Positions 6,349 to 64,000 of a stretch of DNA of 64,000 nucleotides are shown here, piece by piece (position 1 is the stretch's first letter; the number at the start of each line of letters is the position of its first letter). The DNA is taken from assembly GCA_022143435.1 (NCBI GenBank), contig GCA_022143435.1_3941.1; one strand, written 5' to 3'. The position numbers and the translations under genes are program-made. Below the pieces are notes generated by a model. The model was not told the origin of the DNA, ran no database searches, and was given only the letters and a program-made list of their open reading frames with translations. The DNA is from a phage.

Positions 6349-6605
6349 GTAAGCCTCTTTTAAGTAGCTATTAAGTTTTAATCTTTTATCTTAACGTATT
6401 CTATACGTTATACTTTAAAGCTTTTTAAAAGCTATTAAATAATCTTTTAAGAGTTTTAAAGTATCTGTATAGTTAAACTGTTAAGTAACCTTTTAAGTAA
6501 AAACCCACTTCGCAAAGATTAACACCTTGTCAAGTGCATTGTCAACTTGCTTTTTATAATTTTTTGCAGTAATGTATGAGGTTAATGATTTTAGAGGGAG
6601 TAAAA

Positions 6606-9305
6606 ATGGAAAACGTAGATTTTAAAAACTTACATTTAGTTGGTGATACAGAAACTGATGGTTTACTCCTTGAGTTCACTAAAGTGCACGTAATGGCTTT
6701 CGCAGACTATAAATCTGACGATGAAGAGCCGCCTGTATGGGTCTTTACAGATGAGCCTATCCTCGGTCACAAGTATACCAAGTATATTAAGGGTGGCTTA
6801 CGTGAAGGTATTGAGTTTGCGTTAAAGGCAAAACGTCTTTGCATCCATAACGGTCTCGGTTATGACTGGTGGGTTTTCAATCACATTGCACCTGATTTAT
6901 GGAACTTTGATAATCCAAAGTGTAAACCGTGGAGTAATTTCTTTCAGGATTCTCTTATCCAGTCTCGTGTTCAGTGGATGGATAGACCAACTCCAAAGGG
7001 TTATAAAGGTGCTCATGGTTTGGCTGCATGGGGTGCTCGCGTTGGTGTTCGTAAGCCAGAGATTGAGCATTGGGGTGTGTGGAATGCAGAAATCTTCACT
7101 CGTGTTGTAGAAGATATCCGTATTAACGCCAAAACTAAACGGGCACTTGATAACGAGTATCTCAAGCTTAAGAAGTGTGGTATAGACACTTATGAGACTT
7201 ACATGCGAGCTAAAGAAACATCTTTCTGGATGAGTCAACAGGCTATTAATGGCTGGAAAGCTGATAAAGAGCTTATGGAGTTCCATGTGAAGGAACTTGA
7301 CAAATTGACTAATGAGCTTGCTTCAGAGGTTGAACCACATCTACCTCCAACTATTAAGACCAAAGGTAAAGTCACTGGAGAAGAGTTTGCAAAAGCTTGG
7401 AATGAGTATGTTGAAGCATTCGGTCATGCAGATGGACTGAAGAGAATTACCAAGTACCCTAAGACAAAGTACCGTCAGCAGGTACGTAACGGTGAGATGC
7501 AGACATACGAAATCAAGCCATTTGGTAAGCCAACTACAAAGATTTTTAACATTGAAAAGAGAAATTGCTATACACCAACCAACTCTGTAACTGGTGAAGA
7601 GTACAAGGAAGGTTTTGTAGCAATGAAGGATGCTCGTGCAATTTGCAATGAGTTGAACGCAAAGATTGGTAAGAAATGCAAAGACTGGAAGCCAGTAAAA
7701 ACAGTCAAAACTGTGAAGTACTATAACAGTCATGTTGTTAACCACTTTGAACTTGAGTCAAGTCGCTACACAGGTTTGATTGATGCACCATATACACCAA
7801 TTGAGTTCGAAGTTTCTCGCATGACTCAGGTAGCAGTTGTTAAAGACTACTTGAAATCAGTTGGTTGGATTCCAGATGACTGGAATTACAAGAAAGACTC
7901 AGATGGTCGCCCTGTCAAAGTTTGTCGTTTCAAAGACAATAAAAAGATGATTACAAAGCATCCTAAGTGGCAGGAAATGGTTGAGCGGTGTGGTTTGAAT
8001 TATGTTGAACATGAAGGTGTACAGTACATCGAGCATAACTGGTCTGTGAAGAAATACACAGATTTGCTTGAGCCTTGCTTAATCCGTACTTCACCAAAAC
8101 TTACTGAATCATCTTATGATACGATTGAAGGTGAGCTTGGACAGAAGATTGCTAAGTACTATACTTTGATGCACAGACGCAGAACTATTGAGAACTCAAA
8201 GGATGATGAAAAAGGTTGGTTGAACCAGATTCGTCCTGATGGTCGCCTTAGTGCTGGCGCAATGGTGTTTGGTACTTCAACTGGACGTATGACACAATAT
8301 GGTATTGTAAACGTACCGTCTGGTGCTGCTGTCTATGGGGAACCAATGAGGGCAGTGTGGATTTGTGAGGAAGGTACTAACGTTGTCTCTGTAGATATGA
8401 ACTCAGCCCAGCTAGTTCTTCTTTGTAACTTTATGGGTGATAAAGAGTTCACCAAAGCGGTAACGCAAGGTAAAGAAGAGATTGAGTTTATTCGTCAAGA
8501 AGATGGACGCTATTACTGCAAACATTTTGATGAGTACCTCAACCCAGAGATTGATAAGTACCTTCGCTATGACTCTGAGAATGACCTGTACGTTGTCTAT
8601 TCAGGGACTGATGCACATACACTGAACAGTATCTACTTTAGCTTGAACGATGAGCAGGACATCTTGACTTGTCGAGCTACTCAGGATGAGAATCTTCTTC
8701 ATGAGATTAGCAAAGGTCGTAAGAAAGCTAAGAATGGTATCTATGCACTACTGTTTGGTGCAGGTGATGAGAAGTTTGCTAAAACTATTAAGGCAGCCAC
8801 TACTCAGGAAGGTGCATTAACTAAACAGACTTACTTTGTGCGTTTGCCAAAGATTAAGAAACTATTAGATAACTTGGAAGCTGACTACAAAGCAACTAAA
8901 AAGGCACTTGAAGAGGTGTTTGGTAAGACCGCTGCAATCTCTAAAGGGGGTTTTGTAAAGGTTGCTGGAGCTTGGTTGTGGTGTAAATCTCCACATAAGT
9001 TGTTGAATTATTTGCTCATGGGTTCGGAAAGTCAGATTCAGAACGAGGCAATTAACCTTGCTTGCCGTCGTATGATTGACGAAGGTTTGATGAAGTTGAA
9101 CGGTCGCAAACCAGCTATAGGTGCTCGTTTATTGTGCTCCTATCACGACGAGACAAGTTGGGAATGTCCAGAAAGTATGACGGCAGAGGTGAAGGCTGTC
9201 ACTGATTGGTATTACGGGCAAGCCTCTAAGAACTTAGGACTAAAGAGTGAAACACTGGTAACTGGTACTGGTAAGGTTGGTAAGTCGTGGTTGGAAGTGC
9301 ATTAA
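6606..9305 (+). CDS. DNA polymerase, family A, with 3'-5' exonuclease domain
   Basis: Exo I motif VGDTETDGL; polymerase motif C YHDETSWECP; start moved to ATG 6606 (AGAGGGA RBS) rather than track start 6576. Confidence 0.9.
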   Translation: MENVDFKNLHLVGDTETDGLLLEFTKVHVMAFADYKSDDEEPPVWVFTDEPILGHKYTKYIKGGLREGIEFALKAKRLCIHNGLGYDWWVFNHIAPDLWNFDNPKCKPWSNFFQDSLIQSRVQWMDRPTPKGYKGAHGLAAWGARVGVRKPEIEHWGVWNAEIFTRVVEDIRINAKTKRALDNEYLKLKKCGIDTYETYMRAKETSFWMSQQAINGWKADKELMEFHVKELDKLTNELASEVEPHLPPTIKTKGKVTGEEFAKAWNEYVEAFGHADGLKRITKYPKTKYRQQVRNGEMQTYEIKPFGKPTTKIFNIEKRNCYTPTNSVTGEEYKEGFVAMKDARAICNELNAKIGKKCKDWKPVKTVKTVKYYNSHVVNHFELESSRYTGLIDAPYTPIEFEVSRMTQVAVVKDYLKSVGWIPDDWNYKKDSDGRPVKVCRFKDNKKMITKHPKWQEMVERCGLNYVEHEGVQYIEHNWSVKKYTDLLEPCLIRTSPKLTESSYDTIEGELGQKIAKYYTLMHRRRTIENSKDDEKGWLNQIRPDGRLSAGAMVFGTSTGRMTQYGIVNVPSGAAVYGEPMRAVWICEEGTNVVSVDMNSAQLVLLCNFMGDKEFTKAVTQGKEEIEFIRQEDGRYYCKHFDEYLNPEIDKYLRYDSENDLYVVYSGTDAHTLNSIYFSLNDEQDILTCRATQDENLLHEISKGRKKAKNGIYALLFGAGDEKFAKTIKAATTQEGALTKQTYFVRLPKIKKLLDNLEADYKATKKALEEVFGKTAAISKGGFVKVAGAWLWCKSPHKLLNYLLMGSESQIQNEAINLACRRMIDEGLMKLNGRKPAIGARLLCSYHDETSWECPESMTAEVKAVTDWYYGQASKNLGLKSETLVTGTGKVGKSWLEVH

Positions 9306-9315
9306 TGGTGACAAA

Positions 9316-9843
9316 ATGATTACACAAGAACGTTTAAAGGAACTACTACACTATGACCCCGAAACAGGGGTCTTTACTTGGCTTCGTAGGGAGGGTGACT
9401 CAAGGGCTGTTAAAGTCTTTAATAGTCGGTACGCAGGACAGGTAGCGGGGAGCATCCAGATTGACTCAACTGGTCATAATCAGATTACTATCTATTTTGA
9501 CAAGAAAGCACATAAAGCGCACAGACTCGCATGGCTGTACGTGTATGGTAGGCTGCCGAAAGGTGTTATTGACCATGTTAATGGGGACTCCCTTGATAAC
9601 AGGATTGTAAACTTAAGAGAAGCAGATGACTACCAAAGTGCTTGGAATAAAAGCAAACTATCCACCAATAAATCAGGCTATAAGGGTGTAAGCCTGAAGA
9701 AGAAGTCTGGTAGGTGGGTTGCGCAAATAAGCTATAAAGGTAAAAAGATGTCATTAGGCTACTATGACACACCAGAAGAGGCCCATAAAGCTTACTGTGA
9801 AGCTGCTGTAAAACTCCACGGAGAGTTTGCAAAACTAAGTTGA
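9316..9843 (+). CDS. HNH homing endonuclease with AP2-type DNA-binding domain
   Basis: HNH core HRLAWLYVYGRLPKGVIDHVNGDSLDNRIVNL; AP2-like SGYKGVSLKKKSGRWVAQISYKGKKMSLGYYDTPEEA; starts 11 nt after the polymerase stop. Confidence 0.8.
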   Translation: MITQERLKELLHYDPETGVFTWLRREGDSRAVKVFNSRYAGQVAGSIQIDSTGHNQITIYFDKKAHKAHRLAWLYVYGRLPKGVIDHVNGDSLDNRIVNLREADDYQSAWNKSKLSTNKSGYKGVSLKKKSGRWVAQISYKGKKMSLGYYDTPEEAHKAYCEAAVKLHGEFAKLS

Positions 9844-9894
9844 CAAGGTGCTCAGGGAAGAGTACCTTATACTATATCTTGTATAGGAGGGCTT

Positions 9895-13690: not shown

Positions 13691-13768
13691 ATCTGTTGAC
13701 AAGTCAGGTGTTATAGCTTATTTTTATACTCAATGTAATACAAAATTTAATATAACTTTGAGGTCATT

Positions 13769-14153: not shown

Positions 14154-14366
14154 ATGGCTCTTAAAAAGTTACATCCCAGAAGTGGTTATGGTAAGATAGT
14201 CGATGATACAGACGGCTTTACAGTATTTACAGTCATCTGTCAAGATGATTCACAGATTGAAAAGGCTCTTGATGATTATCTTAACGATGAACGTGAAAAG
14301 GTTAGGGCTACAAACATAGATTCATTAATTGACACTTCACGTAAACGGAAGAAGAAAGATGAATGA
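14154..14366 (+). CDS. hypothetical protein
   Basis: 70-aa ORF. Confidence 0.4.
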   Translation: MALKKLHPRSGYGKIVDDTDGFTVFTVICQDDSQIEKALDDYLNDEREKVRATNIDSLIDTSRKRKKKDE

Positions 14367-14658
14367 AGTTTTTGACCCTTATGCTCCACAAGATGATTGG
14401 GAGGCTGACAGAGAGGCTGAAATGGAGAGTTATGTTTGTCCAATGGATGTAGACGAAATGAGAGATTTCGTTGCACACCGTTTTAAGAAAGAGATTAAAT
14501 CCAGAGGTCTTTCTCAAGAGCAAGTTGCTAAAATTTGTGGTATCTCTCAGGCTCGCGTATCCAACATAATCCACCTCACTGGTAATGTCTCCCTTGAGTA
14601 TATGTTGGAAGTATGTGAAAAATTTGGTGTTAATTTCAATTTAAGGCTGGCAGATTAA
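14359..14658 (+). CDS. helix-turn-helix DNA-binding protein
   Basis: HTH LSQEQVAKICGISQARVSNI; start ATG 14359 overlapping upstream stop. Confidence 0.5.
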   Translation: MNEVFDPYAPQDDWEADREAEMESYVCPMDVDEMRDFVAHRFKKEIKSRGLSQEQVAKICGISQARVSNIIHLTGNVSLEYMLEVCEKFGVNFNLRLAD

Positions 14659-20371: not shown

Positions 20372-21559
20372 TTAAGCTGTTCTCTGCCATACATACAGTA
20401 CGAAGGATGGCTGCTCAATGTTGAAAGCTTGTCCACCACCAACACTGTTAGTATTCCCGCTATGTGTATGCTCAGAAGAAGAAACTGTCACAGTACCATT
20501 GTGCGTATGTGAACCAATACCAACCGTATGACTGTGAGCACCGATACCTACAGAGTGAGAATGGTCACCAGTTGTGTTAGTAGTAACACTGAAAGAGTGA
20601 GTGTGTGCACCAGCTACTTCACAGACAGCATCTGCTGAGTACCATGATTGGTCATTTCTTGTAGACCAAACCATTGCAGGTCTTTCCGATAGGCCACCAC
20701 CTGCTTCATATGTCAATCTGTGGTTGTGAGCACCAGCAGAACTTGTTGACCCACTACCAACATGGTTATGGTTACCAGTCGTGTTAGTGGTTTTAGTTCC
20801 ATAGTCAAAAGAGTTAGTAGTCTTAGTTCCATAATCAAAAGCTGAAATTGACACCGTTGCATTATGAGTATGACCACCACCACTAAGAGACACAGAGTGA
20901 GAGTGTTGAGGCATGTTATTAACTGACAAAGTGACAGTTGAAGCACCAAATACAGAACCTGCTGGTCTTGTGTCAGAGTCATAACCAACCAATGCTCTAC
21001 CCTTTGAAACTAACTCCCAAGTACCTCCACAAATTAAATATGTAGAAGGGTTTGCAGAGTTCATGGAAAGATGGATAGTACCTACTGGATAGGAAGCCTG
21101 AACAGCCTTGTACAAGTTATTTACTGCTCTTGCTGTAGCATACTTATCTGCATCTTCGTTATAAAGGTTAGATGTTGTCCAGTTCTGAACATTACTCAAT
21201 CCTACCTGTGCCTTAGTTGTATTATGTGGGTTGCTCTTGTCCTGAATATGCTGTTGAACAAGATTATTAACCTCTTCTGAAGACATAATCTGTAGATTTG
21301 CTCTTGCCTGAGCTACATTAGTAACGTCTGATAAGTTATTTGCAGCAACTAACTGAAGAGCATTGATAACGTTATCTAAACCAATTTGTGTTTTAGTAAC
21401 ACCATGAGGGTTATTTCTTAGGCTTGAGTGTGGAGCAAGTAATTGCTCAAGAGTACATCTCTTATCCTCAATACCCTGCTTAAGATGGAAGATATCACTA
21501 AGGTCAATTGGTAAGGCTGCTTGAGGCAAGGCACTAATTTGAATTTCACCTACCGCCAT
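20372..21559 (-). CDS. tail fibre protein (second, HxH-motif tip)
   Basis: 395 aa; [43 protein letters not shown]; C-terminus parallels the adjacent fibre. Confidence 0.7.
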   Translation of the reverse strand: MAVGEIQISALPQAALPIDLSDIFHLKQGIEDKRCTLEQLLAPHSSLRNNPHGVTKTQIGLDNVINALQLVAANNLSDVTNVAQARANLQIMSSEEVNNLVQQHIQDKSNPHNTTKAQVGLSNVQNWTTSNLYNEDADKYATARAVNNLYKAVQASYPVGTIHLSMNSANPSTYLICGGTWELVSKGRALVGYDSDTRPAGSVFGASTVTLSVNNMPQHSHSVSLSGGGHTHNATVSISAFDYGTKTTNSFDYGTKTTNTTGNHNHVGSGSTSSAGAHNHRLTYEAGGGLSERPAMVWSTRNDQSWYSADAVCEVAGAHTHSFSVTTNTTGDHSHSVGIGAHSHTVGIGSHTHNGTVTVSSSEHTHSGNTNSVGGGQAFNIEQPSFVLYVWQRTA

Positions 21560-41258: not shown

Positions 41259-41334
41259 TGGAGAATCCGAAGGGACTCGAACCCTTATAAACCTGTTTTG
41301 CAGACAGGCACATATCCATTTCTGTCACGGATTC
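41259..41334 (-). tRNA. tRNA-Cys (GCA)
   Basis: Manual cloverleaf; 7-bp acceptor stem; CCA encoded. Confidence 0.65.
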
Positions 41335-41339
41335 AAAAT

Positions 41340-41432
41340 TGGAGGAAGATACCAGACTTGAACTGGTACACCGATTTCTCAGCTACTGGCAGTTTAGCAA
41401 ACTGCTCCCTTACCTTTTAGGGTTAATCTTCC
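41340..41432 (-). tRNA. tRNA-Ser (GCT), class II
   Basis: Long variable arm; anticodon loop TTGCTAA. Confidence 0.6.
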
Positions 41433-41433
41433 A

Positions 41434-42168
41434 TTATTTCTGTAATGCGCTCTTCATTTCTGGTGTTGCAATAGTGTCAATTACACCAGTTTTACAGGCA
41501 TCATCAAACCAGTCTGGTAAGATACCTGCTAAGAACCCATTGATATTCGTTTTAAGGTACTCTGCAATAAGGGCAGCTTCTTCTTCAATCATCTGCACAA
41601 CTTCATCTGCATAAGCTGTAATCTTTGAGATACCTTCATTAATCTTACTGACAGCTTGGTTAGCTAAATCAGAAACAGTATCAAGACCCTTGTCAATAGC
41701 GTCTTGTAAGTCACTTAATACATTGTTAACACTCTCTAGTGTACTGTTAATCATATCAATAGCTTTTTGACCATATTCTGTAGCAACACCCATAATACCA
41801 CTGAACGGTGTACAACCAACTTGTTCTCCTGCTGCACCCATAACATTGGAATATCCCTTTGCTACCTGCATACGTGATGAAAACTCATCAATAGATTTTT
41901 GACCGTAGTCTGTCAGGGTCTTAGTAGTTGCTGTAGTGCTTGTAAGGCTTGTTGTAAAGCTGTTTAGAAGGACTGTTGTAAGTCCAGCAGCAACAAGTTT
42001 CTCCTGCATTGTAGGGTCTGTTACAGAACTAATAGAGCTTACAAGTGATGTAGAAGCAGCTACGGTTCCACCGAGAACTGCTGCACCAGTAATAAGTGGG
42101 TTAGAAAACCCTTTACCGGTTTTTAAGAGATTAAAAATCTCCTTACCTTGTTCTGTCATCTCTTTCAT
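41434..42168 (-). CDS. hypothetical protein embedded in tRNA array
   Basis: Start moved to ATG 42168 (AGGTG upstream) because the track start overlaps tRNA-Phe. Confidence 0.4.
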   Translation of the reverse strand: MKEMTEQGKEIFNLLKTGKGFSNPLITGAAVLGGTVAASTSLVSSISSVTDPTMQEKLVAAGLTTVLLNSFTTSLTSTTATTKTLTDYGQKSIDEFSSRMQVAKGYSNVMGAAGEQVGCTPFSGIMGVATEYGQKAIDMINSTLESVNNVLSDLQDAIDKGLDTVSDLANQAVSKINEGISKITAYADEVVQMIEEEAALIAEYLKTNINGFLAGILPDWFDDACKTGVIDTIATPEMKSALQK

Positions 42169-42184
42169 TAAGCACCTTTGAAAT

Positions 42185-42260
42185 TGGTAGTCCAGTGGGA
42201 TTTGAACCCTCTTCTCATGTTTTTCAGACACGCGCTTTAACCATATAAGCTACTTGGACT
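42185..42260 (-). tRNA. tRNA-Phe (GAA)
   Basis: Manual cloverleaf; anticodon loop CTGAAAA. Confidence 0.6.
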
Positions 42261-42266
42261 ATAAAT

Positions 42267-42342
42267 TGGGGTGACCTACGGGATTTGAACCCGTATAGAC
42301 CATGTTCACAGCATGGGTCATTACCATTTATGATAAGGCCAC
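42267..42342 (-). tRNA. tRNA-His (GTG)
   Basis: Anticodon loop CTGTGAA. Confidence 0.6.
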
Positions 42343-42377
42343 ATTTAAGGACTCTCGTAAGAACCCTTAGAAGTGGC

Positions 42378-42448
42378 AGCGGCATAAGGATTTGAACCTT
42401 AATAGGACAGCTTCAGAGACTGTTGCATTGCCAGTTATGCTATACCGC
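42378..42448 (-). tRNA. tRNA-Gln (CTG)
   Basis: Anticodon loop CTCTGAA; CCA not encoded. Confidence 0.5.
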
Positions 42449-42454
42449 TAAATT

Positions 42455-42533
42455 TGGTACTCCATATCGGATTCGAACCGATACATAACACAGATTTTAA
42501 GTCTGGCCTCTCTGCCAATTGGAGTAATGGAGC
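42455..42533 (-). tRNA. tRNA with anticodon TAA (Leu by anticodon, short variable loop)
   Basis: Good acceptor and T arms; 4-bp anticodon stem; class-I-like length. Confidence 0.45.
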
Positions 42534-42535
42534 AT

Positions 42536-42611
42536 TGGCGGGGGATGTTGGAATTGAACCAACTTCTTCGATTTCAAAGACCGAGGTTTTAACCTTGTAA
42601 ACTAATCCCCT
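42536..42611 (-). tRNA. tRNA-Gln (TTG)
   Basis: Anticodon loop CTTTGAA. Confidence 0.5.
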
Positions 42612-42619
42612 TTAAATCT

Positions 42620-43177
42620 TTACTTTCTTAGTGGATGAATAAAGAATGCCAACATAACTCTTTCCCTTGAGAATGCTCTTTCTTCTGGGACAACACTTTT
42701 TAGCTTCCACCCAATATAAATTCTCCAGTAGAACTGTTTACCAAAGATTTTAATTGATGGGATAAAAGCGAATAATCCCCAAGCATTGCTGTTCCACATT
42801 AGGAGATAACCTGTCTGATTATCTTCAGGGTTAGAACTTACGTTGATATTACCTTTCCACTTAGTAACATCTTTTACATCTCTTCCTAATACATGGTAAG
42901 AGAAGTTATAAGCTTTGTTTCTCCAGAGCCATCCGACTCTTTGCATGTAGACACCTAGTTTACCAATCCATCTAATATTAGCCCATCTTTTAACGTGACC
43001 TTCATCACCATCAATTGGGTTGTCATATGTCTCCATCCATCTGAATCCGAAAGGTAAGTGTCCTTTCTTCTCACTGTAGAATGGAACTACAAAAGGTGCT
43101 AAGATAACTGCTAAGATTGCTGCAAATGGCTCTAACAAAGCTAAGAAAATCCATGAAGCATACTTCAAATATCTCAT
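42620..43177 (-). CDS. membrane protein embedded in tRNA array
   Basis: N-terminal hydrophobic segment WIFLALLEPFAAILAVILAPFVVPF; Trp-rich. Confidence 0.45.
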   Translation of the reverse strand: MRYLKYASWIFLALLEPFAAILAVILAPFVVPFYSEKKGHLPFGFRWMETYDNPIDGDEGHVKRWANIRWIGKLGVYMQRVGWLWRNKAYNFSYHVLGRDVKDVTKWKGNINVSSNPEDNQTGYLLMWNSNAWGLFAFIPSIKIFGKQFYWRIYIGWKLKSVVPEERAFSRERVMLAFFIHPLRK

Positions 43178-43196
43178 CTAAATAGCCTCTTTAAAT

Positions 43197-43272
43197 TGGC
43201 GCAGGATAAGGGATTCGAACCCCTATTAACAGCTTCGTAGACTGTTGCTCTATCCATTTGAACTAATCCTGC
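43197..43272 (-). tRNA. tRNA-Arg (ACG)
   Basis: Anticodon loop CTACGAA. Confidence 0.65.
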
Positions 43273-43277
43273 AAAAT

Positions 43278-43355
43278 TGGTGTTCCAAGACGGATTCGAA
43301 CCGTCACTAGTACAAGGTTTGAGCTTGCATCCTCTGCCAATTGGGATACTGGAAC
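43278..43355 (-). tRNA. tRNA with anticodon CAA (Leu by anticodon, short variable loop)
   Basis: 5-bp anticodon stem, loop CTCAAAC. Confidence 0.45.
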
Positions 43356-43356
43356 A

Positions 43357-43431
43357 TGGTACTCACTAAAGGACTTGAACCTTTTTCTTCATCTTGTAAG
43401 GGTGGTGTTTTACCATATAAACTAAGCGAGT
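43357..43431 (-). tRNA. tRNA-like, anticodon TAC (Val?), weak anticodon stem
   Basis: Good acceptor/D/T arms; anticodon stem has two C-A mismatches. Confidence 0.4.
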
Positions 43432-43527
43432 GTGAAAGAGGTCTGAAGTTGTGCCGCTAACTCAACTCCGTGGAATTTGTTACGGTCTTCAGTTGACTCA
43501 AAGCGGTCTTTCACTTGACCTCTAAAT
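43432..43527 (-). ncRNA. tRNA-sized structured element, not a canonical cloverleaf
   Basis: Perfect 7-bp terminal stem AGAGGTC/GACCTCT enclosing about 73 nt; no standard T-loop. Confidence 0.25.
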
Positions 43528-43603
43528 TGGTGCTCCCACAAGGATTCGAACCCTGATAAGTTGCTTACAAGGCAACCGTAATAGCCAATTATACGATAGG
43601 AGC
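43528..43603 (-). tRNA. tRNA-Thr (TGT)
   Basis: Anticodon loop CTTGTAA. Confidence 0.6.
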
Positions 43604-43610
43604 ATTAATT

Positions 43611-43685
43611 TGGAGCATCCAGAGGGAATCGAACCCTCAACCTCAGTTTGGAAGACTGTAATTTTCCCGTTTAAACTATGGATGC
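43611..43685 (-). tRNA. tRNA-Gly (TCC)
   Basis: Anticodon loop CTTCCAA. Confidence 0.6.
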
Positions 43686-43691
43686 ACTAAT

Positions 43692-43767
43692 TGGTGGAGT
43701 CACTGAGAATTGAACTCAGTTCCCAAGTTTGCAAAACTCGAATTTTAACCATATAAACTATGACCCC
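43692..43767 (-). tRNA. tRNA-Ala (TGC)
   Basis: Anticodon loop TTTGCAA. Confidence 0.6.
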
Positions 43768-43773
43768 ATTTTT

Positions 43774-43849
43774 TGGTACAGGTGGAGGGAATTGAACCCA
43801 TCGTCTTACTGATTAAGAGTCAGCCGCATAACCATTTTGCTACACCTGC
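43774..43849 (-). tRNA. tRNA-Lys (CTT)
   Basis: Anticodon loop CTCTTAA; register slightly ambiguous. Confidence 0.45.
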
Positions 43850-43856
43850 ATTAATT

Positions 43857-43934
43857 TGGTAGGAGACAAGGGATTCGAACCCTCAAACACCAACTTCTAA
43901 GGATGGTAGGTTTACCAATTACCGTCAATCTCCC
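43857..43934 (-). tRNA. tRNA with anticodon TAG (Leu by anticodon)
   Basis: Anticodon loop CTTAGAA, 4/5 stem pairs. Confidence 0.4.
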
Positions 43935-44190
43935 ATTAAATCTTTTTAGAGAACTTCTAAGAACCTAAGCAACAAGGTTCCACAACAAGCTGTAATAACC
44001 TTAGAAGCCCTCTAAAAAGACCTAAAAAGGTCTTTGCATAGTCTTGTTTAATCCGGTGACTAGAACCTTTGGAGAGCTTGATATTATCTCTTCTCCGTGA
44101 CACCTACTAGGTGCTTTACTGTGCGTGTACGACAATACACTAGGGATACCAAAGCAACATCCGAATGAAGCTTGGCTTTAAATCTTATTA

Positions 44191-44269
44191 GGCGGTAAGT
44201 AAAGGAGTCGAACCCTCACCGTATCTCTACAGTGGCAACTGTTTTCAAGACAGTTTGGCTACCATTAGC
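44191..44269 (-). tRNA. tRNA-Ser (TGA), class II
   Basis: Anticodon stem ACTGT/ACAGT, loop CTTGAAA, long variable arm. Confidence 0.55.
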
Positions 44270-44293
44270 CGCTACCTACCCCTAATAAGACTT

Positions 44294-44376
44294 TGGCATG
44301 GGACGGAGGAGTTGAACCCCTTTGAAACGGTTTTGGAGGCCGTTGCTCATGCCTTAGAGTCTTAACATCGCCCCAT
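44294..44376 (-). tRNA. tRNA-like with Trp-type anticodon loop CTCCAAA (CCA)
   Basis: Anticodon arm matches E. coli tRNA-Trp loop; D region about 7 nt too long for a standard cloverleaf. Confidence 0.35.
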
Positions 44377-44518
44377 ACTATAATTCGAAGCTTACCGTAT
44401 TATCTCAACACTGTAAAGCCCCTTCTCAGATTATTTACATGTTCTGGAAAACATGAGATACAGACCACCTCCCTACAGGAAGACCCGCTTAGGTCGTCTA
44501 AGTAATCTGCTAACTAAT

Positions 44519-44595
44519 TGGTACACCCTACAGGATTCGAACCTGTAACTAACGATTTAGAAGACCGTTGCTCTATCCAATTGAACTAAGGGTGC
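44519..44595 (-). tRNA. tRNA-Arg (TCT)
   Basis: Anticodon loop CTTCTAA. Confidence 0.6.
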
Positions 44596-44798
44596 ATTAA
44601 TCTTTAAAGACTCTCTTAGAAAGCCCTTAAAGATGCCCACCTTATTAATCATACCGTGGGCTAGTACGCCAAATTCTTTGATGAGGGATTGGAAGACCTC
44701 ACTGGTGTTTAGCCTATCAAGCTACTGCCAGAAAAACATTGTCGTTTGCATTTATTTTAAATTTGCAAAATAGACGCTACGCAACGAAAACTAAGGTT

Positions 44799-44827
44799 AC
44801 TATAAAGTAGTCACATCTCAATGTCAA
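44799..44827 (-). promoter_or_regulatory. sigma70-like promoter inside tRNA array (TTGACA-N17-TATAGT)
   Basis: Read on minus strand; would drive the tRNAs at lower coordinates. Confidence 0.5.
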
Positions 44828-44842
44828 CAACTTTATTGAAAT

Positions 44843-44917
44843 TGGTTGTAGGTGAGGGTATCGAACCCTCTTCTAACGGTTATCAGCCGTTTGCATTACC
44901 ATTTATGCTAACCCACA
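44843..44917 (-). tRNA. tRNA-Ile (GAT)
   Basis: Anticodon loop CTGATAA. Confidence 0.65.
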
Positions 44918-44919
44918 AT

Positions 44920-44996
44920 TGGAGGTTCAGATGGGAATCGAACCCACATTCATAGGGCTTATGAGACCCTTGCATTACCTTATCTGCGACTGAACC
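44920..44996 (-). tRNA. tRNA-Met (CAT)
   Basis: Anticodon loop CTCATAA. Confidence 0.6.
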
Positions 44997-45000
44997 ATTT

Positions 45001-45076
45001 TGGTAGAAGTGGAGGGATTCGAACCCATCGCCTGTCAGATTAAAAGTCTGCCGCATCACCATTCTGCTACACTTCC
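45001..45076 (-). tRNA. tRNA-Lys (TTT)
   Basis: Anticodon loop CTTTTAA. Confidence 0.55.
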
Positions 45077-45081
45077 ATTAA

Positions 45082-45229
45082 ATTATCTTTGTAGATAAGC
45101 TACCCAGACTTGCTTAAGGTCTGTAGCGATGTGCCTTTTTGGGTTTAAATCTAGAATTTACCCTTTCACCCTTTGTGGTCGCATACTCACAGGTAAGCTT
45201 AATAACTTATCTACAAAGATAATTACCAG
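45082..45229. repeat. 18-bp inverted repeat (ATTATCTTTGTAGATAAG ... CTTATCTACAAAGATAAT) flanking about 110 bp
   Basis: Read directly; inside a tRNA-free gap of the array. Confidence 0.7.
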
Positions 45230-45504
45230 ACCGTTGTTTATCATCTTAAGTGCTACCATTACACCAACTCGACATCTGCCGAGTGAAGGAATCGAACCTT
45301 CGCCTTTTCTTTACCGAGAAATAGATTGTTTAAGTTTTGCTGTAAACGGTCTTCTGTAAATTTGTTGAGCCAGACCAAGTTTTAGATTTTCAAAATTAAA
45401 TTGGCTTGAAATTTCATACGTTCTTGCTGTATTTGGTCTTCTGCTCCTTTAAAGGATACTCGTAAGAACCCTTTAAGGGAGGGGCTAAATAGCCCTCTCA
45501 AAAT

Positions 45505-45583
45505 TGGCGGTTACGAAGGGATTTGAACCCTCATCATCTCCCGTGACAGGGGAGTATTTTAACCAAATTAAACTACATAACCT
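45505..45583 (-). tRNA. tRNA-Asp (GTC)
   Basis: Anticodon stem CTCCC/GGGAG, loop CTGTCAC. Confidence 0.65.
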
Positions 45584-45587
45584 TTAT

Positions 45588-45675
45588 TGGTGTGCCGTGT
45601 AGGAGTCGAACCTACCGAGTCTCAATGACAAGGGATTTACAGTCCCCACCGCTACCATCTACGGGATAACGACAC
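45588..45675 (-). tRNA. tRNA-Tyr (GTA), class II
   Basis: Anticodon loop CTGTAAA with long variable arm. Confidence 0.6.
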
Positions 45676-45684
45676 ATTTAAATT

Positions 45685-45761
45685 TGGCGGTTAGTCAGGG
45701 ATTCGAACCCTGTGCCATTCGCTTAACAGGCTACCGCACATACCTTATGTGCTTCCTAACC
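45685..45761 (-). tRNA. tRNA-Asn (GTT), imperfect anticodon stem
   Basis: Anticodon loop CTGTTAA; good acceptor and T arms. Confidence 0.45.
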
Positions 45762-45838
45762 TTAATACATTGCCAGACCGTGTTTTTTCTTTTATCCGCA
45801 AAAAGTAGTTTGTTGCTGAATACGGTCTTCTGCAAAAT

Positions 45839-45915
45839 TGGAGGCGGGTGCAGGAGTCGAACCTGCCGATACCATGCTAATGAGACATGTGAGACGCCCT
45901 TTCTCTATACCCGCA
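45839..45915 (-). tRNA. tRNA with anticodon CAT (second Met, initiator or Ile-lysidine type)
   Basis: Anticodon loop CTCATTA. Confidence 0.5.
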
Positions 45916-46006
45916 ATTCTTAATGACCAGACCAAATCTCTTCTTTGTCCGATTTCGTGTCAGATGAATAAGATTAAACTTGCTGTAATTGGTCTTCTGT
46001 CAAAAC

Positions 46007-46084
46007 TGGCGTTCCAGAAGGGATTTGAACCCTCAAATATCCACTTTGAAAGAGTGGTGACTTTACCATTTTGTCTACTGGAAC
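46007..46084 (-). tRNA. tRNA-Glu (TTC)
   Basis: Anticodon stem CCACT/AGTGG, loop CTTTCAA. Confidence 0.65.
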
Positions 46085-46091
46085 ATTAATT

Positions 46092-46168
46092 TGGTCTCTG
46101 TTGGAGGACTTGAACCTCCGGCCTTACCGTCCCAAACGGAACGCTCTACCAATCTGAGCTAAACAGAG
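46092..46168 (-). tRNA. tRNA-Pro (TGG)
   Basis: Canonical D arm GCTCAGATTGGTAGAGC; anticodon loop TTTGGGA. Confidence 0.65.
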
Positions 46169-46333
46169 ATAAACTTTTCAAACTCTATGTAACCACTTTA
46201 ACATTATTTTTTAGTGGTTGTCAAGAACTTTTTTAAAATATTTTTCAGTATCTTAGAAAAGCTCTCATTTCGTTTCTATGTAGAACATATTAAAGGGTAT
46301 CAAACACATTGTCAATACCCTTTTTAAAACTTT

Positions 46334-47749
46334 TTACCAGATATAACGGTCAATCATTACTGCTTTGAGCATTACGCTGATTGGGTCAAACTTCTCACCA
46401 CCAAGCAAAGCTTTTAAAGTGGCTGGAGAGAACCCTGATACCATTGCTACACCGTTATCCTTAACAGACACTTCGCAAGTACCATTACGGTTTGCTAAGT
46501 ACCAGAATACCAGTTGTGGCATCTCATATCCAGCTTTCTTGTACTTGCTCTGAATTGCTTCAAAGTTTGTACGACCGTTAGCTCCATCAACCTGATTGAA
46601 CTCCATATCGGAGAAGATGATAAGCTTACTTGGCATATCTTCCTGAGTCAAGTTGTTTCTCTTACCTATCTCAAGAATGCGGTCAAAAGCTGCTTGTAAG
46701 TTGGTTGAGCCATATTCAACGTGTCGCATCACCTGACGATGACGGTTTCGTAAATCACCACTCAGTTCGATGAAGTGAGGGTTTGTTGAATAAACCATCA
46801 ACTCATCCTTAAAGCAACCTGTATTGCGTTCTGCTACATACAAGGCAAGTGATACACCAATATCAAGAGCAGTAATGGAGCCAAAATTCACCCAAGACAT
46901 TGAGCTTGAAACATCAGTCATACATAAGATGTTTTCACCTTCTGCCATCCAGTTTGGTAGTGCTTTCCACTGCTCATTAGCAACATCTGCATTACCATGC
47001 TTGACAGATTTAATCACATCGTATGGGTAAACAGCACCAGCATTAATCTTAGCCTCACCCTTTGATAAGGACTCGATGTAAGCTTTGTAGCGTTCTCCAT
47101 CTTTACGGTTAAACAGTTTTTGGTAACGTGCAGCAGCAAGTGAAGGAATCTTACTGTAGTCAATCTTACCAAACTCATTAGCAGAGATTTTTTGCTCAAC
47201 TGTATCAGATAGTGCAGACAACAGTGTGCGGTACTCTTTCTCACTCAGGTTGGCAAATTTGCAGAAACGTTTTACAAACTGTTTATGACGTGGTTTGACT
47301 CGTGGTAACCACTTAGCTGCCAAACCTGCTGTTGCAGGGTCTAGTAATGCCGCTTCTAAATGTTTGAAGGCATCTGTCTCGAAACGAGTACCTACGAAGA
47401 TTTTGAAGTCATCAAAACGACCAAGTTCTGCAATCTTATCCATAATGCGAAGAACCTGTGTAGGCTCTAAAACTTTATCTTCAATTGCTTGAAGCAAAAC
47501 AGTTCTGAAGGCTTTACGCTCACCCATACCTTCTCGTACATCTCGCATATGAAGCAAAATACGAACTGCAACATCAACATCCTCACGCAAAGCTTTGTAG
47601 AACAAGTCTGGTAAGATTTCTACATTGCTACGGCTCGAACCAGCAGCTTTGTAAAAGTCCACAAGAGCAGACATTGATGAAGTATGGTTTACAGCACCAT
47701 TTTCAGTTCGACCTGCATGAAGGTGCGCATGTTTGAATAATTCGCTCAT
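46334..47749 (-). CDS. vWA-domain protein with about 270-aa helical N-terminal domain
   Basis: MIDAS-type motif NILCMTDVSSSMSW and later LIIFSDMEF; architecture recalls TROVE+vWA (Ro60-like) proteins (inference). Confidence 0.6.
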   Translation of the reverse strand: MSELFKHAHLHAGRTENGAVNHTSSMSALVDFYKAAGSSRSNVEILPDLFYKALREDVDVAVRILLHMRDVREGMGERKAFRTVLLQAIEDKVLEPTQVLRIMDKIAELGRFDDFKIFVGTRFETDAFKHLEAALLDPATAGLAAKWLPRVKPRHKQFVKRFCKFANLSEKEYRTLLSALSDTVEQKISANEFGKIDYSKIPSLAAARYQKLFNRKDGERYKAYIESLSKGEAKINAGAVYPYDVIKSVKHGNADVANEQWKALPNWMAEGENILCMTDVSSSMSWVNFGSITALDIGVSLALYVAERNTGCFKDELMVYSTNPHFIELSGDLRNRHRQVMRHVEYGSTNLQAAFDRILEIGKRNNLTQEDMPSKLIIFSDMEFNQVDGANGRTNFEAIQSKYKKAGYEMPQLVFWYLANRNGTCEVSVKDNGVAMVSGFSPATLKALLGGEKFDPISVMLKAVMIDRYIW

Positions 47750-47831
47750 ATTTTACTCTCTTCTCTCATTTTGTTTGTTGATGTGACAGACTTTAGAGCA
47801 ACTTTGTAGAGTCTGTCAACACCTTTTAAAA

Positions 47832-48203: not shown

Positions 48204-48452
48204 TGGTATGCCTCTTATAAGACCTCTTAAAAGGCTTTTAAGATAAAAGATAGATATCCAGAAAGATATCTGTTTAAATAGCCTTTTTAGAGGAACCTTT
48301 TAAGTTATCTTCTAAGTATTTATAAGCCTATACCTTGTCAAGTACTTTGTCAACAACTTTTTTAACTTGCAATAGTTCTTGACTTGTTGTATGGATTACT
48401 GTACCATCTTACTTAAAGCTGTAGGTCTGCCTTGTTCTACAAAGGAGACTTA

Positions 48453-48614
48453 ATGAGAAAATCAAATAAACCGAAGAAAGGTAAGAATACCAATCACTGT
48501 AAGGAATCAAAAAGGGTAGAATTAATCTACTATTCGTCCTCTGAAATTGGTCTGTACCTGTTCTTTCAAAATTACAGAAGACAAGAGGATTATCTATGTG
48601 TAGTTCCCAATTAG
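48453..48614 (+). CDS. hypothetical small protein
   Basis: ATG 48453 with AAGGAG RBS; short. Confidence 0.3.
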   Translation: MRKSNKPKKGKNTNHCKESKRVELIYYSSSEIGLYLFFQNYRRQEDYLCVVPN

Positions 48615-55772: not shown

Positions 55773-55783
55773 AATATCTTAAG

Positions 55784-55808
55784 AGCCTCCTTAATTGGGG
55801 GCTTTTTA
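55784..55808 (+). terminator. rho-independent terminator
   Basis: AGCCTCC-TTAATT-GGGGGCT followed by TTTTT. Confidence 0.7.
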
Positions 55809-55969
55809 CTTTTATAAAATTTTATCGGTTGTCCCAACCTCTGGGTCACCATTATGTGTGAACAAAATATCTACCCTTCTTAACAACCTTCTTAATCTTA
55901 CTCTCTATATATAGTTATATAGTACTATATAGTATCTTAGTATCTATCTAGTGGTCTTAATAGCCCCTC

Positions 55970-57420
55970 TGTATAAGCCTTCTAACAAGCCCTCTAACAA
56001 GCCTTCTAAACAACCTATACAAGCACCTTAACCACCTCTCTATACCCTCTTAGAAGCTCCTATACACCTCTTAATCTCTAGGTTATCTGTGTTACTTAAC
56101 AGTAACCCATTATGTTAGCTATGACACTCTCTATAGGTGTTCACTAGGTATTACTAAGCCTCTATATAGACTGTTTTAACAAGCTTAACAGGAATATCTT
56201 CACAGACCTTATCTCACAAGGTCTAACACGGTACTAACAAGGTATCTTATAAGCCTGTTATTGCCTGTATTTTTAAAAGGCTGTATAGGTAATTATTCAG
56301 AATCTTAAAATTTTTATAAAATAGGACTATCAAGTCCTTTTTTTAGGGTCTTTGAAGGAACTGAAAAATATCTGTAGAAGATGTATATCTGCTTGGTAGC
56401 CCTTAACAGCTCCCTTACAAGTACTTTGCAAAATTTTAAAATATCCTTAACAATCTCTTAACAGCTCTCACATCTTCTTAACAACTCTTCAAAGGTCTTA
56501 ACAGATTCTTAACAGAACTAACAAGGCTGTAACAGTTTTCTAGGGATTGGTAACAATACCAATTAACAAGTGCTGAATAGTCTTTACAGAATCTTAACAG
56601 ATGACTAACAAGAGCTAAGTAGTTAAATGTTAAGAGTTATTTTGTTAAGATAATTAACAAGTCTCTAACAAGTGTTTAATCTTTTTAACAAGCTATTAAC
56701 ATGGTCACTACTCTTTTCTTATCGTTCCCTTTGCTTCTTAGTGATTCTCTAAACATACCTCTTAAAAGCTCTCTATAGCTCCTTGTAAGCCCTTTTAAGC
56801 CTCTTCCTAGTATTTACCCCCCAACTGTACAGATAGCTCTTTATAGGGCTTTACAGGAGCTTTTAAGGCTATGTCAAAGACTCTTACAAGGCTTTTACGT
56901 GGTCTTAACAGAGATTTAACAAGGGGCTAACAAATCTCTAACAAGCATAACTATGTAGGGATTGTTAAGAAATTGTTAAGAAAATGTTAAGGGGGCTAGC
57001 ATTTACGTAACTTTATAGCCTCTTTTACGTAACTTTGAAGTAACTTTATAGCCCCTATAACATACTTTTAAGACACTACCAATAGGATTCGATAGATTCC
57101 TATCTCATAGCCCTTTTTAATAGTTCACAAGAATACTAACGAGATGATAAAGCTTACACCCTTATAAGATTCTTTTAAGTCTCTGAGAAGCTTTATAAAG
57201 GGCTTTTTAGGGTGAGTTAATGCAATCCCTTAAGTTAGGTTGATAAGGCTGTTATAGAGCTTTATAGAGCGTTTAAACGGTTGCCCTTCCCTTTCGGGTT
57301 ATGGGCTTATATTTAAGTTGATTTGATAAGAGGTTATAGCGTAGACTATAGAGTTATTGCTTTTAAGGTCTAGTAAGATTCTGGAAAGGTGATGGAAAGA
57401 GATTGTATAAGGATTCGATA
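55970..57420. repeat. ORF-free repeat-dense region with YTAACAR heptamer array and other short direct repeats
   Basis: At least 25 copies of (T/C)TAACA(A/G) between about 55975 and 56960, three inverted copies TGTTAAG at 56963-56995; no ORF of 60 aa or more in any frame. Confidence 0.8.
56323..56345 (+). terminator. terminator-like hairpin within the noncoding region
   Basis: GGACT-ATCA-AGTCC followed by T8. Confidence 0.55.
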
Positions 57421-57425
57421 GACGT

Positions 57426-57450
57426 AAAAAAAGCCCCTTTAAATAGGGGC
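57426..57450 (-). terminator. rho-independent terminator ending the early minus-strand gene array
   Basis: GCCCCT-loop-AGGGGC followed by T7 on the minus strand. Confidence 0.7.
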
Positions 57451-57489
57451 TGTTCAGGTATCTGGGGCTATTTAGCCCCGCTGCGTCGA

Positions 57490-57738: not shown

Positions 57739-57800
57739 TTTAGAATCTCCAGTTTAGGACTTTATTTAGTGGGGAGGTTATTCCCTCCCCGTTGATGAGT

Positions 57801-57829
57801 AATTTACTGCATGTTGGCGTATGTTGCAA
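57801..57829 (-). promoter_or_regulatory. sigma70-like promoter of type A cassette (TTGCAA-N17-TAAATT)
   Basis: Read on minus strand just upstream of conserved hairpin 57771-57790. Confidence 0.5.
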
Positions 57830-58067: not shown

Positions 58068-58099
58068 CTTGATAACTCCAGTTTAGGACTTTATTTAGT

Positions 58100-58120
58100 G
58101 GGGAAGGTCATTCCCTCCCC
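58100..58120 (-). repeat. type A cassette hairpin core GGGGAAGGTCATTCCCTCCCC (one of 7 copies)
   Basis: Copies at about 57771, 58100, 58697, 59259, 60817, 61682, 63827; each about 25 nt upstream of a GGAG-N8-ATG. Confidence 0.85.
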
Positions 58121-58133
58121 GTTGATTGACAAT

Positions 58134-58664: not shown

Positions 58665-58883
58665 TTTAGAATCTCCAGTTTAGGACTTTATTTAGTGGGG
58701 AGGTTATTGCCTTCCCGTTGATTAGTAATTTACTTGTTTTGATAGTTGATTGCAAGTAATTTTTTGAGCTTATCTATAAAGAATCTTTTAAGTGAATCCC
58801 TTTTAGATAACCCCCTCGAACAAAGTTACCAATGTCAATGGGTATTGTCAACACTTTTTTAAAAGTTTTTTGTAAGTTATTGA

Positions 58884-60784: not shown

Positions 60785-60847
60785 TTTAGAATCTCCAGTT
60801 TAGGACTTTATTTAGTGGGGAAGGTCATTCCCTCCCCGTTGATGTGT

Positions 60848-60876
60848 AATTTAATCTATCTAAAAACCAGTGTCAA
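60848..60876 (-). promoter_or_regulatory. sigma70-like promoter of type A cassette (TTGACA-N17-TAAATT)
   Basis: Consensus -35 with AT-rich upstream tract; hairpin 60817-60837 lies in the 5' leader. Confidence 0.55.
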
Positions 60877-61649: not shown

Positions 61650-61712
61650 TTTGGAATCTCCAGTTTAGGACTTTATTTAGTGGGGAAGGTCATTCCCTCC
61701 CCGTTGATGTGT

Positions 61713-61741
61713 AATTTAATCTATCTAAAAACCAGTATCAA
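61713..61741 (-). promoter_or_regulatory. sigma70-like promoter of type A cassette (TTGATA-N17-TAAATT)
   Basis: Near-identical to the promoter at 60848-60876. Confidence 0.5.
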
Positions 61742-63794: not shown

Positions 63795-64000
63795 TTTTGA
63801 ATCTCCAGTTTAGGATTTTATTTAGTGGGGAAGGTCATTCCCTCCCCGTTGATGTAAATATTAGATAACCACGTTCAAAGAGTCAATAAAAATTTTAAAA
63901 ATATTTTTGGCAAAACTGTAATGAAACGGGTGCGCACGACTACCACAAAACAGAACGCAAATCAAGAATTATTTTTCAATCCGCTACAAATTTTTCTCTT

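Follow-up and report, generated by a model that had tools for sequence, protein, structure and literature searches.

A doubled TTGACA hexamer in three predicted leftward promoters of a Felix O1-like phage

The 64,000-nt stretch of phage DNA analysed here (the window) comes from a Felixounavirus, a Felix O1-like myovirus with 97–98% identity to phages LF82P3 and XTG1. It carries two copies of a 22-bp element, CCTTGTCAAGTnCnTTGTCAAC, that is probably the upstream half of a leftward sigma-70-type promoter, within a family of three such predicted promoters. Read on the minus strand, both copies (sites 1 and 2) consist of an A-tract followed by GTTGACAA, five further bases and TTGACAAGG, that is, two perfect sigma-70 -35 hexamers set 12 bp apart. 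A third, looser member lies elsewhere in the window, and the coordinates of all parts are collected in Table 1. The distal hexamer is proposed to serve as the -35 box. The proximal hexamer is strictly conserved and is left unexplained by a plain promoter model.

The Felix O1 genome is organised in four transcription blocks, with divergent junctions only at genes 96/97 and 40/41 (PMC3185647). The 96/97 junction corresponds to nt 6349-6606 of the window, with DNA polymerase encoded rightward and gp97, dNMP kinase and primase-helicase leftward. The 40/41 junction corresponds to nt 48204-48453, with small early genes on its rightward side and, in the leftward direction, gp41, a DUF2828/vWA 'RNA-binding protein', 26 tRNAs and the morphogenesis genes. 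Since the copies fall at these two junctions, exact copies of the element are found in both divergent regions and nowhere else. The 'RNA-binding protein' of this block (471 aa, nt 46334-47749, minus strand; DUF2828/DUF7788/vWA domains, with its name taken from PHROG) is encoded directly upstream of the 26-tRNA cluster (nt 41259-46168, minus strand), which is preceded by tandem promoter-like sites at nt 46310 and 46219.

A preliminary description of this DNA had reported near-identical 22-bp elements at nt 6525-6546 and 48333-48354, and both positions were confirmed. The plus-strand 22-mers read CCTTGTCAAGTGCATTGTCAAC and CCTTGTCAAGTACTTTGTCAAC, respectively; no copy of CCTTGTCAAGTnCnTTGTCAAC is expected by chance, and when up to three mismatches were allowed there were still just two matches in the 64-kb window and none in 100 dinucleotide-shuffled sequences. 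The half-sites had been described as 7 bp apart; the TTGTCAA heptamers (nt 6527-6533 and 6539-6545 at site 1, nt 48335-48341 and 48347-48353 at site 2) are in fact separated by 5 nt, which gives a period of 12 bp. Further TGTCAAC motifs had been placed at nt 46301, 47808 and 58845. There is none at the first of these positions, where the nearest TTGTCAA (nt 46309-46315) is followed by T, and the other two correspond to motifs at nt 47814-47820 and 58846-58852 that form the -35 boxes of minus-strand promoter-like sites. A motif search, which had been proposed as a check, found no enrichment of TGTCAAC by itself (16 found in the window versus 13 expected). The likeness of the two intergenic regions reaches past the 22 bp; one such stretch is AACCTTTTAAGT, some 37 bp left of the element at either site.

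Table 1. Positions of the predicted leftward promoters, their leaders and associated candidate features in the window
Feature	Coordinates (nt)	Strand	Remarks
Site 1, element	6525-6546	-	Reads GTTGACAATGCACTTGACAAGG
Site 1, A-tract (UP-like)	6546-6557	-	ataaaaagcaag; directly upstream of the -35
Site 1, distal TTGACA	6540-6545	-	Proposed -35 of the gp97/dNMP kinase/primase-helicase block; invariant in 23 unique relatives
Site 1, proximal TTGACA	6528-6533	-	Within the promoter spacer, at about -24 to -19
Site 1, proposed -10	6516-6521	-	TAATCT, 18 nt past the distal hexamer; TAGTCT in Mooglevirus
Site 1, predicted leader	6349-6515	-	About 160 nt; contains CTTAAAAGGTT (nt 6487-6497) and TACAGATA, both common to the other two leaders
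Site 2, element	48333-48354	-	Reads GTTGACAAAGTACTTGACAAGG
Site 2, A-tract (UP-like)	48354-48365	-	ttaaaaaagttg
Site 2, distal TTGACA	48348-48353	-	Proposed -35 of the gp41/RNA-binding protein/tRNA cluster/morphogenesis block; hexamer of Felix O1 'P41'
Site 2, proximal TTGACA	48336-48341	-	Within the spacer; anchor of the ASO1A GenBank promoter
Site 2, proposed -10	48325-48330	-	TAGGCT, 17 nt past the distal hexamer; TAGCCT in Suspvirus and Mooglevirus
Site 2, predicted leader	48204-48324	-	About 115 nt; contains CTTAAAAGGTT (nt 48294-48304) and ACAGATA
Third family member	58823-58863	-	aaaaaagtgTTGACAAtacccaTTGACAttggTAACTT; between co-directional homologues of Felix O1 ORF21 and ORF22
Third site, distal hexamer	58846-58851	-	
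Third site, proximal hexamer	58833-58838	-	
Third site, proposed -10	58823-58828	-	TAACTT, 17 nt
Candidate DNA polymerase promoter	6547-6574	+	TTGCTT-N16-TAATGT; abuts the element; blocks conserved across genera
Candidate gene 40 block promoter	48379-48407	+	TTGACT-N17-TACCAT; alternative TTGTCA (nt 48347-48352)-N18-TGcAATAGT
99-aa XRE/Cro-type HTH protein	14359-14658	+	Candidate trans factor, by inference

The three copies are arranged alike on the minus strand, each of them in the sense of the gene that follows and 115-160 nt upstream of a minus-strand start codon; two of the three (sites 1 and 2) precede the first gene of a leftward transcription unit. The third copy sits between two co-directional genes, so the element is not specific to divergent regions, to which it had originally been assigned. 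The proposal of a shared promoter class is supported for the leftward direction by the A-tract, the consensus -35, a suitably spaced -10-like hexamer, the position upstream of genes and the conservation footprint. Its extension to divergent transcription is not, as the element is directional (leftward) and not one device serving both directions.

The distal hexamer matches TTGACA at 6/6 positions at all three sites. The proposed -10 hexamers match TATAAT at 3/6 positions each, with the A at -11 and the T at -7 kept, and these poor -10 boxes are the reason why the sites are not called by a simple consensus scan. The -10 keeps a spacing of 17-18 nt from the distal hexamer, whereas its spacing from the proximal hexamer varies (4, 5 or 6 nt), as does the linker between the two hexamers (5 or 6 nt). 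The third site is looser than the other two, its double hexamer (nt 58833-58851) having a period of 13 bp; compared with sites 1 and 2, the linker has gained one base and the segment past the proximal hexamer has lost one, so that the distal hexamer is still 17 nt from the -10. The proximal hexamer lies in the spacer, at about -23 to -18, and at none of the three sites is it followed by a -10-like hexamer at 16-18 nt. For this reason it was rejected as the true -35; the AATACT that follows it after N15, as in the annotation of phage ASO1A (see below), has no counterpart at site 1.

In the complete genome of LF82P3, pairs of the type TTGACA-N4-9-TTGACA occur at these three places only, all in gene sense, versus 0.1 expected, and in each Felixounavirus genome the 35-nt core matched exactly two places by BLAST. 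The two intergenic regions contain no other consensus -35 upstream of gp97 or gp41. Further promoter-like sites on the minus strand (nt 47814, 46310, 46219, 44822 and 60871) have a aaaaaGttgTTGACA lead, a single hexamer and a better -10, and the double-hexamer promoters have the weakest -10 boxes among the minus-strand promoter-like sites.

We infer that transcription starts at the three predicted promoters. Host RNA polymerase would bind with its alpha subunits on the A-tract and sigma region 4 on the distal TTGACA, and would melt the weak -10 (TAATCT, TAGGCT or TAACTT) situated 17-18 nt downstream, the weakness of this box limiting opening. The start would lie about 7 nt past the -10, that is, near nt 6509, 48318 and 58821, and the resulting transcripts would have long leaders of about 115-160 nt with common CTTAAAAGG and ACAGATA motifs.

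The predicted leaders themselves appear to be related. The regions of site 1 and of the third site (nt 58846) align over about 110 nt, including promoter and leader, with a score of 51 compared with a null of 20.6 ± 2.7, and the leaders of sites 1 and 2 have ACTTAAAAGGTT and ACAGATA in common. Taken together, the alignment and the motifs common to sites 1 and 2 point to three paralogous promoter-leader modules. On sequence grounds, one genome is thus predicted to hold three such modules, for gp97/primase-helicase, for gp41/tRNA/morphogenesis and for the ORF22 homologue. At the Rfam gathering threshold the window contains tRNAs only, and no known RNA family was found in the leaders. When the leader of the third site was used as an anchor in IMG/VR, one contig only was retrieved. 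At sites 1 and 2, CTTAAAAGGTT lies about 18-20 nt past the -10, which is roughly +12 to +24 of the predicted leaders. An octamer, CTTAAAAG, is present in 29 copies versus 5.7 expected (both strands), mostly on the minus strand and in intergenic leaders and an ORF-free region, with clusters at nt 6357-6497, 48226-48304 and 56761-57367. The ORF-free region is a stretch without ORFs or tRNAs (nt 55773-57489) at the convergent junction, where homology was checked around nt 56830-56900 (minus strand).

Homologous intergenic regions of related phages were fetched by their flanking sequences, which avoided selection on the motif. Among the unique sequences compared (23 for site 1, 18 for site 2) both hexamers are invariant, and no position of the intergenic region varies more than one that lies in the 5-nt linker between them. 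The hexamers and their 12-bp phase are unchanged across Felixounavirus, Suspvirus and Mooglevirus; site 2 reads TTGACATtcctcTTGACAAcgtgTAGCCT in the Mooglevirus Maleficent and TTGACAAatgacTTGACAAgctgTAGCCT in the Suspvirus EcSzw_1. In these two genera site 2 keeps the hexamers, the 12-bp phase and TAGnCT, and differs at 8/11 of the other spacer positions. The proximal hexamer has 0/6 variable positions compared with 8/11 elsewhere in the spacer (Fisher exact p = 0.007, calculated by hand for site 2 in Mooglevirus/Suspvirus). In more distant Ounavirinae the equivalent places are occupied by a single consensus promoter: TTGACA-17-TAGGCT in Wc4-1, TTGACA-18-TACATT in phiEa104, TTGACA-16-TAGAAT in phiEa21-4 and TTGACA-17-TAAAGT in Yersinia phage P778. 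These single-hexamer equivalents indicate that a leftward sigma-70 promoter at these positions is ancestral, and the doubled hexamer is a derived feature of the Felixounavirus/Suspvirus/Mooglevirus clade that is maintained by selection.

Site 2 has been recognised before. In Felix O1, a promoter P41 was predicted as TTGACA-N15-TATAGG at nt 21515-21541 of that genome (Whichard et al. 2010, PMC3185647), and the GenBank record of phage ASO1A (MZ726791) carries a 'promoter' feature at site 2 that uses the proximal hexamer and a 15-nt spacer. Both predictions resemble the one made here in locus, strand and the host sigma-70 reading. They differ in being pattern predictions with a 15-nt spacer, anchored on different hexamers; here the -10 is TAGGCT, 17 nt from the distal hexamer. 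The Felix O1 study found no other homologous sequence in the 40-41 or 96-97 intergenic regions (PMC3185647), and for this reason neither site 1 nor the third copy, nor the conservation of the doubled hexamer, is taken to have been described before, while site 2 was already known as the predicted P41. In the part of the published BPROM list of UAB_Phi87 (Table S1) that was available, no promoter is given at the positions (~52.4 kb and 6.3 kb) where sites 1 and 2 would be expected. Literature searches turned up no mapped starts and no RNA-seq for Felixounavirus. In RT-PCR of Felix O1, ORF22 peaked at 5 min, and ORF41, 42, 97 and 98 at 25 min; because the downstream genes fall into disagreeing classes, no claim about timing is made for the promoters.

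The upstream part of the sites conforms to a familiar type. The proximal UP subsite described by Estrem et al. in 1999 is reportedly AAAAAARNR and is said to occur with the consensus -35 TTGACA, as also in early promoters of T4/T5-type phages. Similar to strong sigma-70 promoters with an UP element, the sites have an A-tract abutting a perfect -35 and, after a spacer of 17-18 nt, a proposed -10 of the form TAnnnT; a aaaaaagttgTTGACA lead recurs at further promoter-like sites of the phage and in Streptococcus phage Javan311. They differ in the weak -10 (3/6) and in the second perfect TTGACA within the spacer, which is kept in three genera.

As the proximal hexamer is constrained like a -35 and yet lacks an in-register -10, it should have a function of its own. 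Our preferred guess is that it is a regulatory site, i.e. an operator at which a phage protein would tune the three promoters with weak -10 boxes. A specific form of this, which adds to the promoter reading and is compatible with it, is a composite promoter-operator in which TTGnCAA-N5-TTGnCAA would be the target of the 99-aa HTH protein or of some other early protein; once bound, the protein would occlude the -35 and the spacer and turn the three promoters down or up at a set time. We consider this form possible, if doubtful. It would account for a proximal hexamer as invariant as the -35 without an in-register -10, and for the linker centre being free to vary, as expected of uncontacted central operator bases; the weakness of the -10 boxes at the double promoters relative to the other minus-strand promoter-like sites also fits. 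The sequence has dyad symmetry at 12/19 positions, which follows from each heptamer being palindromic, and it can be read just as well as a direct repeat. Being a pseudo-palindrome whose centre is free, it makes a Cro-like operator overlapping the promoter a reasonable guess. In lambdoid phages, Cro and CI act at OR and OL, which are overlaps of promoter and operator, lambda Cro acting at PR and PL. The likeness lies in a short symmetric site over the -35 and spacer, a Cro-like HTH gene in the genome and a variable centre; the differences are that this phage is virulent, the half-sites are the -35 hexamer itself, the period is 12-13 bp and the operator role is predicted only.

The candidate protein matches HTH_3 (E = 5e-10, nt 14329-14658) and is the sole recognisable DNA-binding regulator among the proteins scanned (50 small/early ORFs and eight beside the sites). 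A tblastn search detected it in 261 phage records that coincide with the double-hexamer clade (Felixounavirus, Suspvirus and Mooglevirus), and detected no homologue in the single-hexamer relatives from Erwinia, Pectobacterium and Yersinia. This distribution favours the promoter-operator, with the limit that the co-occurrence of gene and double hexamer is confined to one clade and so counts as a single evolutionary event. The period, 12 bp at sites 1 and 2, is 13 bp at the third site and 11-12 bp in unrelated phages, a variation that is awkward for a rigid dimer. The unrelated phage contigs with the double motif yielded no HTH homologue (tblastn against those loci), and a regulator common to all motif-bearing phages was rejected on this basis. 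A sequence search of solved structures with the HTH protein returned no informative relative. That the doubled -35 is a cis-regulatory device through which a phage factor, most plausibly the 99-aa XRE protein, would jointly control the three promoters is, in our estimate, unlikely. In a broader version, a -35 copy at about -23 to -18 of the spacer may be a recurrent phage architecture (seen in the Felix-like phages, in the T4-like L090 family, and in L123 and L019) and may reflect a contact of polymerase or regulator hitherto undescribed. Two plus-strand promoter-like sites, at nt 13696-13735 and 9840-9875, both have TTGACAAG...GGTGT; the latter reads TTGACAAGGTG-N11-TACCTT (nt 9840), and the former has TTGACAAGtcaGGTGTTATAGCT (nt 13696) and lies upstream of the operon of the HTH gene, which hints that TTGACAAGGTG is a reused module.

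The heptamer could in principle be used on both strands, given that TTGnCAA is TTGACA on one strand and TTGTCA (5/6) on the other, and polymerases going left and right would then compete for a bidirectional -35 region. This we regard as improbable for the family as a whole. The best case is site 2, where TTGTCA (nt 48347-48352) is followed after N18 by TGcAATAGT, an extended -10, and TGCAATA(G/C)T is kept in Suspvirus and Mooglevirus. In the gp41-equivalent region of Yersinia phage P778 (L138, nt 546-794) there is a perfect 15-bp palindrome, TGTCAAgacTTGACA, in which back-to-back -35 hexamers each have a -10-like hexamer at 17 nt (TAAAGT and TATCGT), and in the viral contig L067 a perfect sense promoter begins 4 nt past the second heptamer. 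At site 1, however, the heptamers have no plus-strand -10 at 16-18 nt, the TTGCTT of the best conserved rightward candidate is outside the element, and the TATAAT at nt 6555-6560 is gone in Suspvirus and Mooglevirus. The third copy has no rightward gene to serve, and two-way use also fails to explain the proximal hexamer. The rightward promoter candidates of the two divergent regions are unlike each other. Only at site 2 is it plausible that the heptamers serve both directions.

A binding site other than a promoter (repeats for a host response regulator, iterons of a replication origin, or a mobile or recombining cassette) is very improbable. Two 7-bp direct repeats with a TGTCA core, the location of site 1 between the polymerase and primase-helicase blocks, a 34-bp identical stretch upstream of gene 55 in unrelated T4-like contigs (L090 family) and the paralogy of the intergenic modules would suit it; against it stand a period of 12-13 bp compared with 11 bp in the pho box, without a conserved plus-strand -10 at the pho-box distance, a chance-level frequency of the exact motif in bacterial genomes, only two repeats per site and no iteron array, and the plain single promoter that relatives have in place of the element.

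Three known classes of site were also compared with the element. The pho box consists of two CTGTCAT direct repeats with an 11-bp period, situated about 10 bp upstream of the -10 in gene sense. It was rejected, as the heptamer here is TTGTCAA, the period 12/13 bp, and the TATAAT that lies 9 nt past the site 1 repeats is lost in Suspvirus and Mooglevirus; site 2 has just TAACTT at the position of a pho-box -10. T4-type middle promoters combine a MotA box, (a/t)(a/t)(a/t)TGCTTtA, centred at -30, with a sigma-70 -10. No TGCTT is present at -30 of the leftward promoters, so a MotA box was rejected, and no MotA/AsiA-like functions have been reported for Felix O1 (PMC3185647). A host transcription-factor site was rejected as well: the exact pattern gave 18 hits in 185,579 bacterial genomes, none of them enteric and most not promoter-like, and this chance level argues against such a site.

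The doubled motif also occurs in several unrelated families of phage contigs, which were located by scans of IMG/VR. In the intergenic L123 family, a 4-nt linker and one compensating base are followed by TATCAT, in sense to the downstream gene; in both L123 and L127 the short linker is accompanied by a base gained past the proximal hexamer, which keeps the 17-nt spacing. L124 and L127 are represented by single contigs, in which a -10-like hexamer (TATCGT in L124) follows the distal hexamer at 17 nt. In the T4-like L090 family (intergenic), the distal hexamer is followed at the same distance by TACATT, and the linker is once more hypervariable; its motif lies 25 nt upstream of gene 55, shares the 34 identical bp with Felix site 2, and has TTGACA antisense to the flanking genes. 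The loci L090 (e.g. nt 1172-1195), L122, L125, L126, L128 and L129 belong to uncultured T4-like viruses that encode gp55, a UvsW-like helicase and a gp23-like capsid protein. The intergenic L019/L067 family has a perfect TTGACA-17-TATAAT, likewise antisense to the flanking genes. The antisense TTGACA of the L090 and L019/L067 families makes these contrary cases that count against the promoter reading. The L001 family was rejected as an independent promoter example, its motif encoding VDKALDKV inside a 233-aa ORF, and this promoter-like match that proved to be coding calls for caution over -10-like hexamers. The lytic promoter of Streptococcus phage Javan311 has the same aaaaaagttgTTGACAAAGT, and the likeness between phages is partly generic strong-promoter sequence. 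About 30 IMG/VR loci (e.g. L007, L011, L022, L034 and L085), in unrelated viral contigs, have tandem 12-bp arrays of GTGCTTTGTCAA with degenerate copies, followed by AATTTGATAGGGCAA; these may be coding repeats or iterons.

Repeated intergenic promoters are reportedly also a feature of T4-type phages, in which Arbiol et al. are said to have described PeSL ('promoter-early stem-loop') cassettes in 2010. The modules described here are similar in being repeated in one genome and in having a similar sequence in an unrelated T4-like contig family; they differ in combining promoter and leader, rather than promoter and terminator hairpin. No sign of mobility was obtained for the three modules.

Felix O1 is a classic diagnostic and biocontrol phage whose mode of temporal transcription regulation was given as unknown (PMC3185647). 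What is added here is a three-member family of predicted promoters with leaders, heading major transcription units, a second TTGACA embedded in the spacer, and one named candidate regulator. Should the doubled hexamer prove to be a device worked by a phage factor, it would offer a first concrete way into the temporal control of Felix O1-like phages; should the second hexamer be merely tolerated redundancy, the sites would be an ordinary set of host-type promoters.

Several other features of the window were recorded. The ends of the published terminal repeat had no match in the window at up to three mismatches. An ORF resembling HNH-AP2 homing endonucleases (nt 9277-9843, plus strand) lies directly 3' of the DNA polymerase gene. 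Several relatives have the polymerase match in two pieces, and some such records annotate an endonuclease there. One early ORF, among 50 small ORFs, has a Pfam match to a Tad2-like (Thoeris anti-defence 2) domain (E = 8.7e-5). A cassette of about 50-70 bp with a hairpin and ribosome site (caacGGGAAGG...CCTCCCC...GGAG...ATG) has at least six copies lying between small early genes, at nt 58665-58734, 57739-57808, 60785-60853, 61654-61718, 58076-58127 and 63799-63853, and as a query this cassette matches 3-8 places per genome in relatives.
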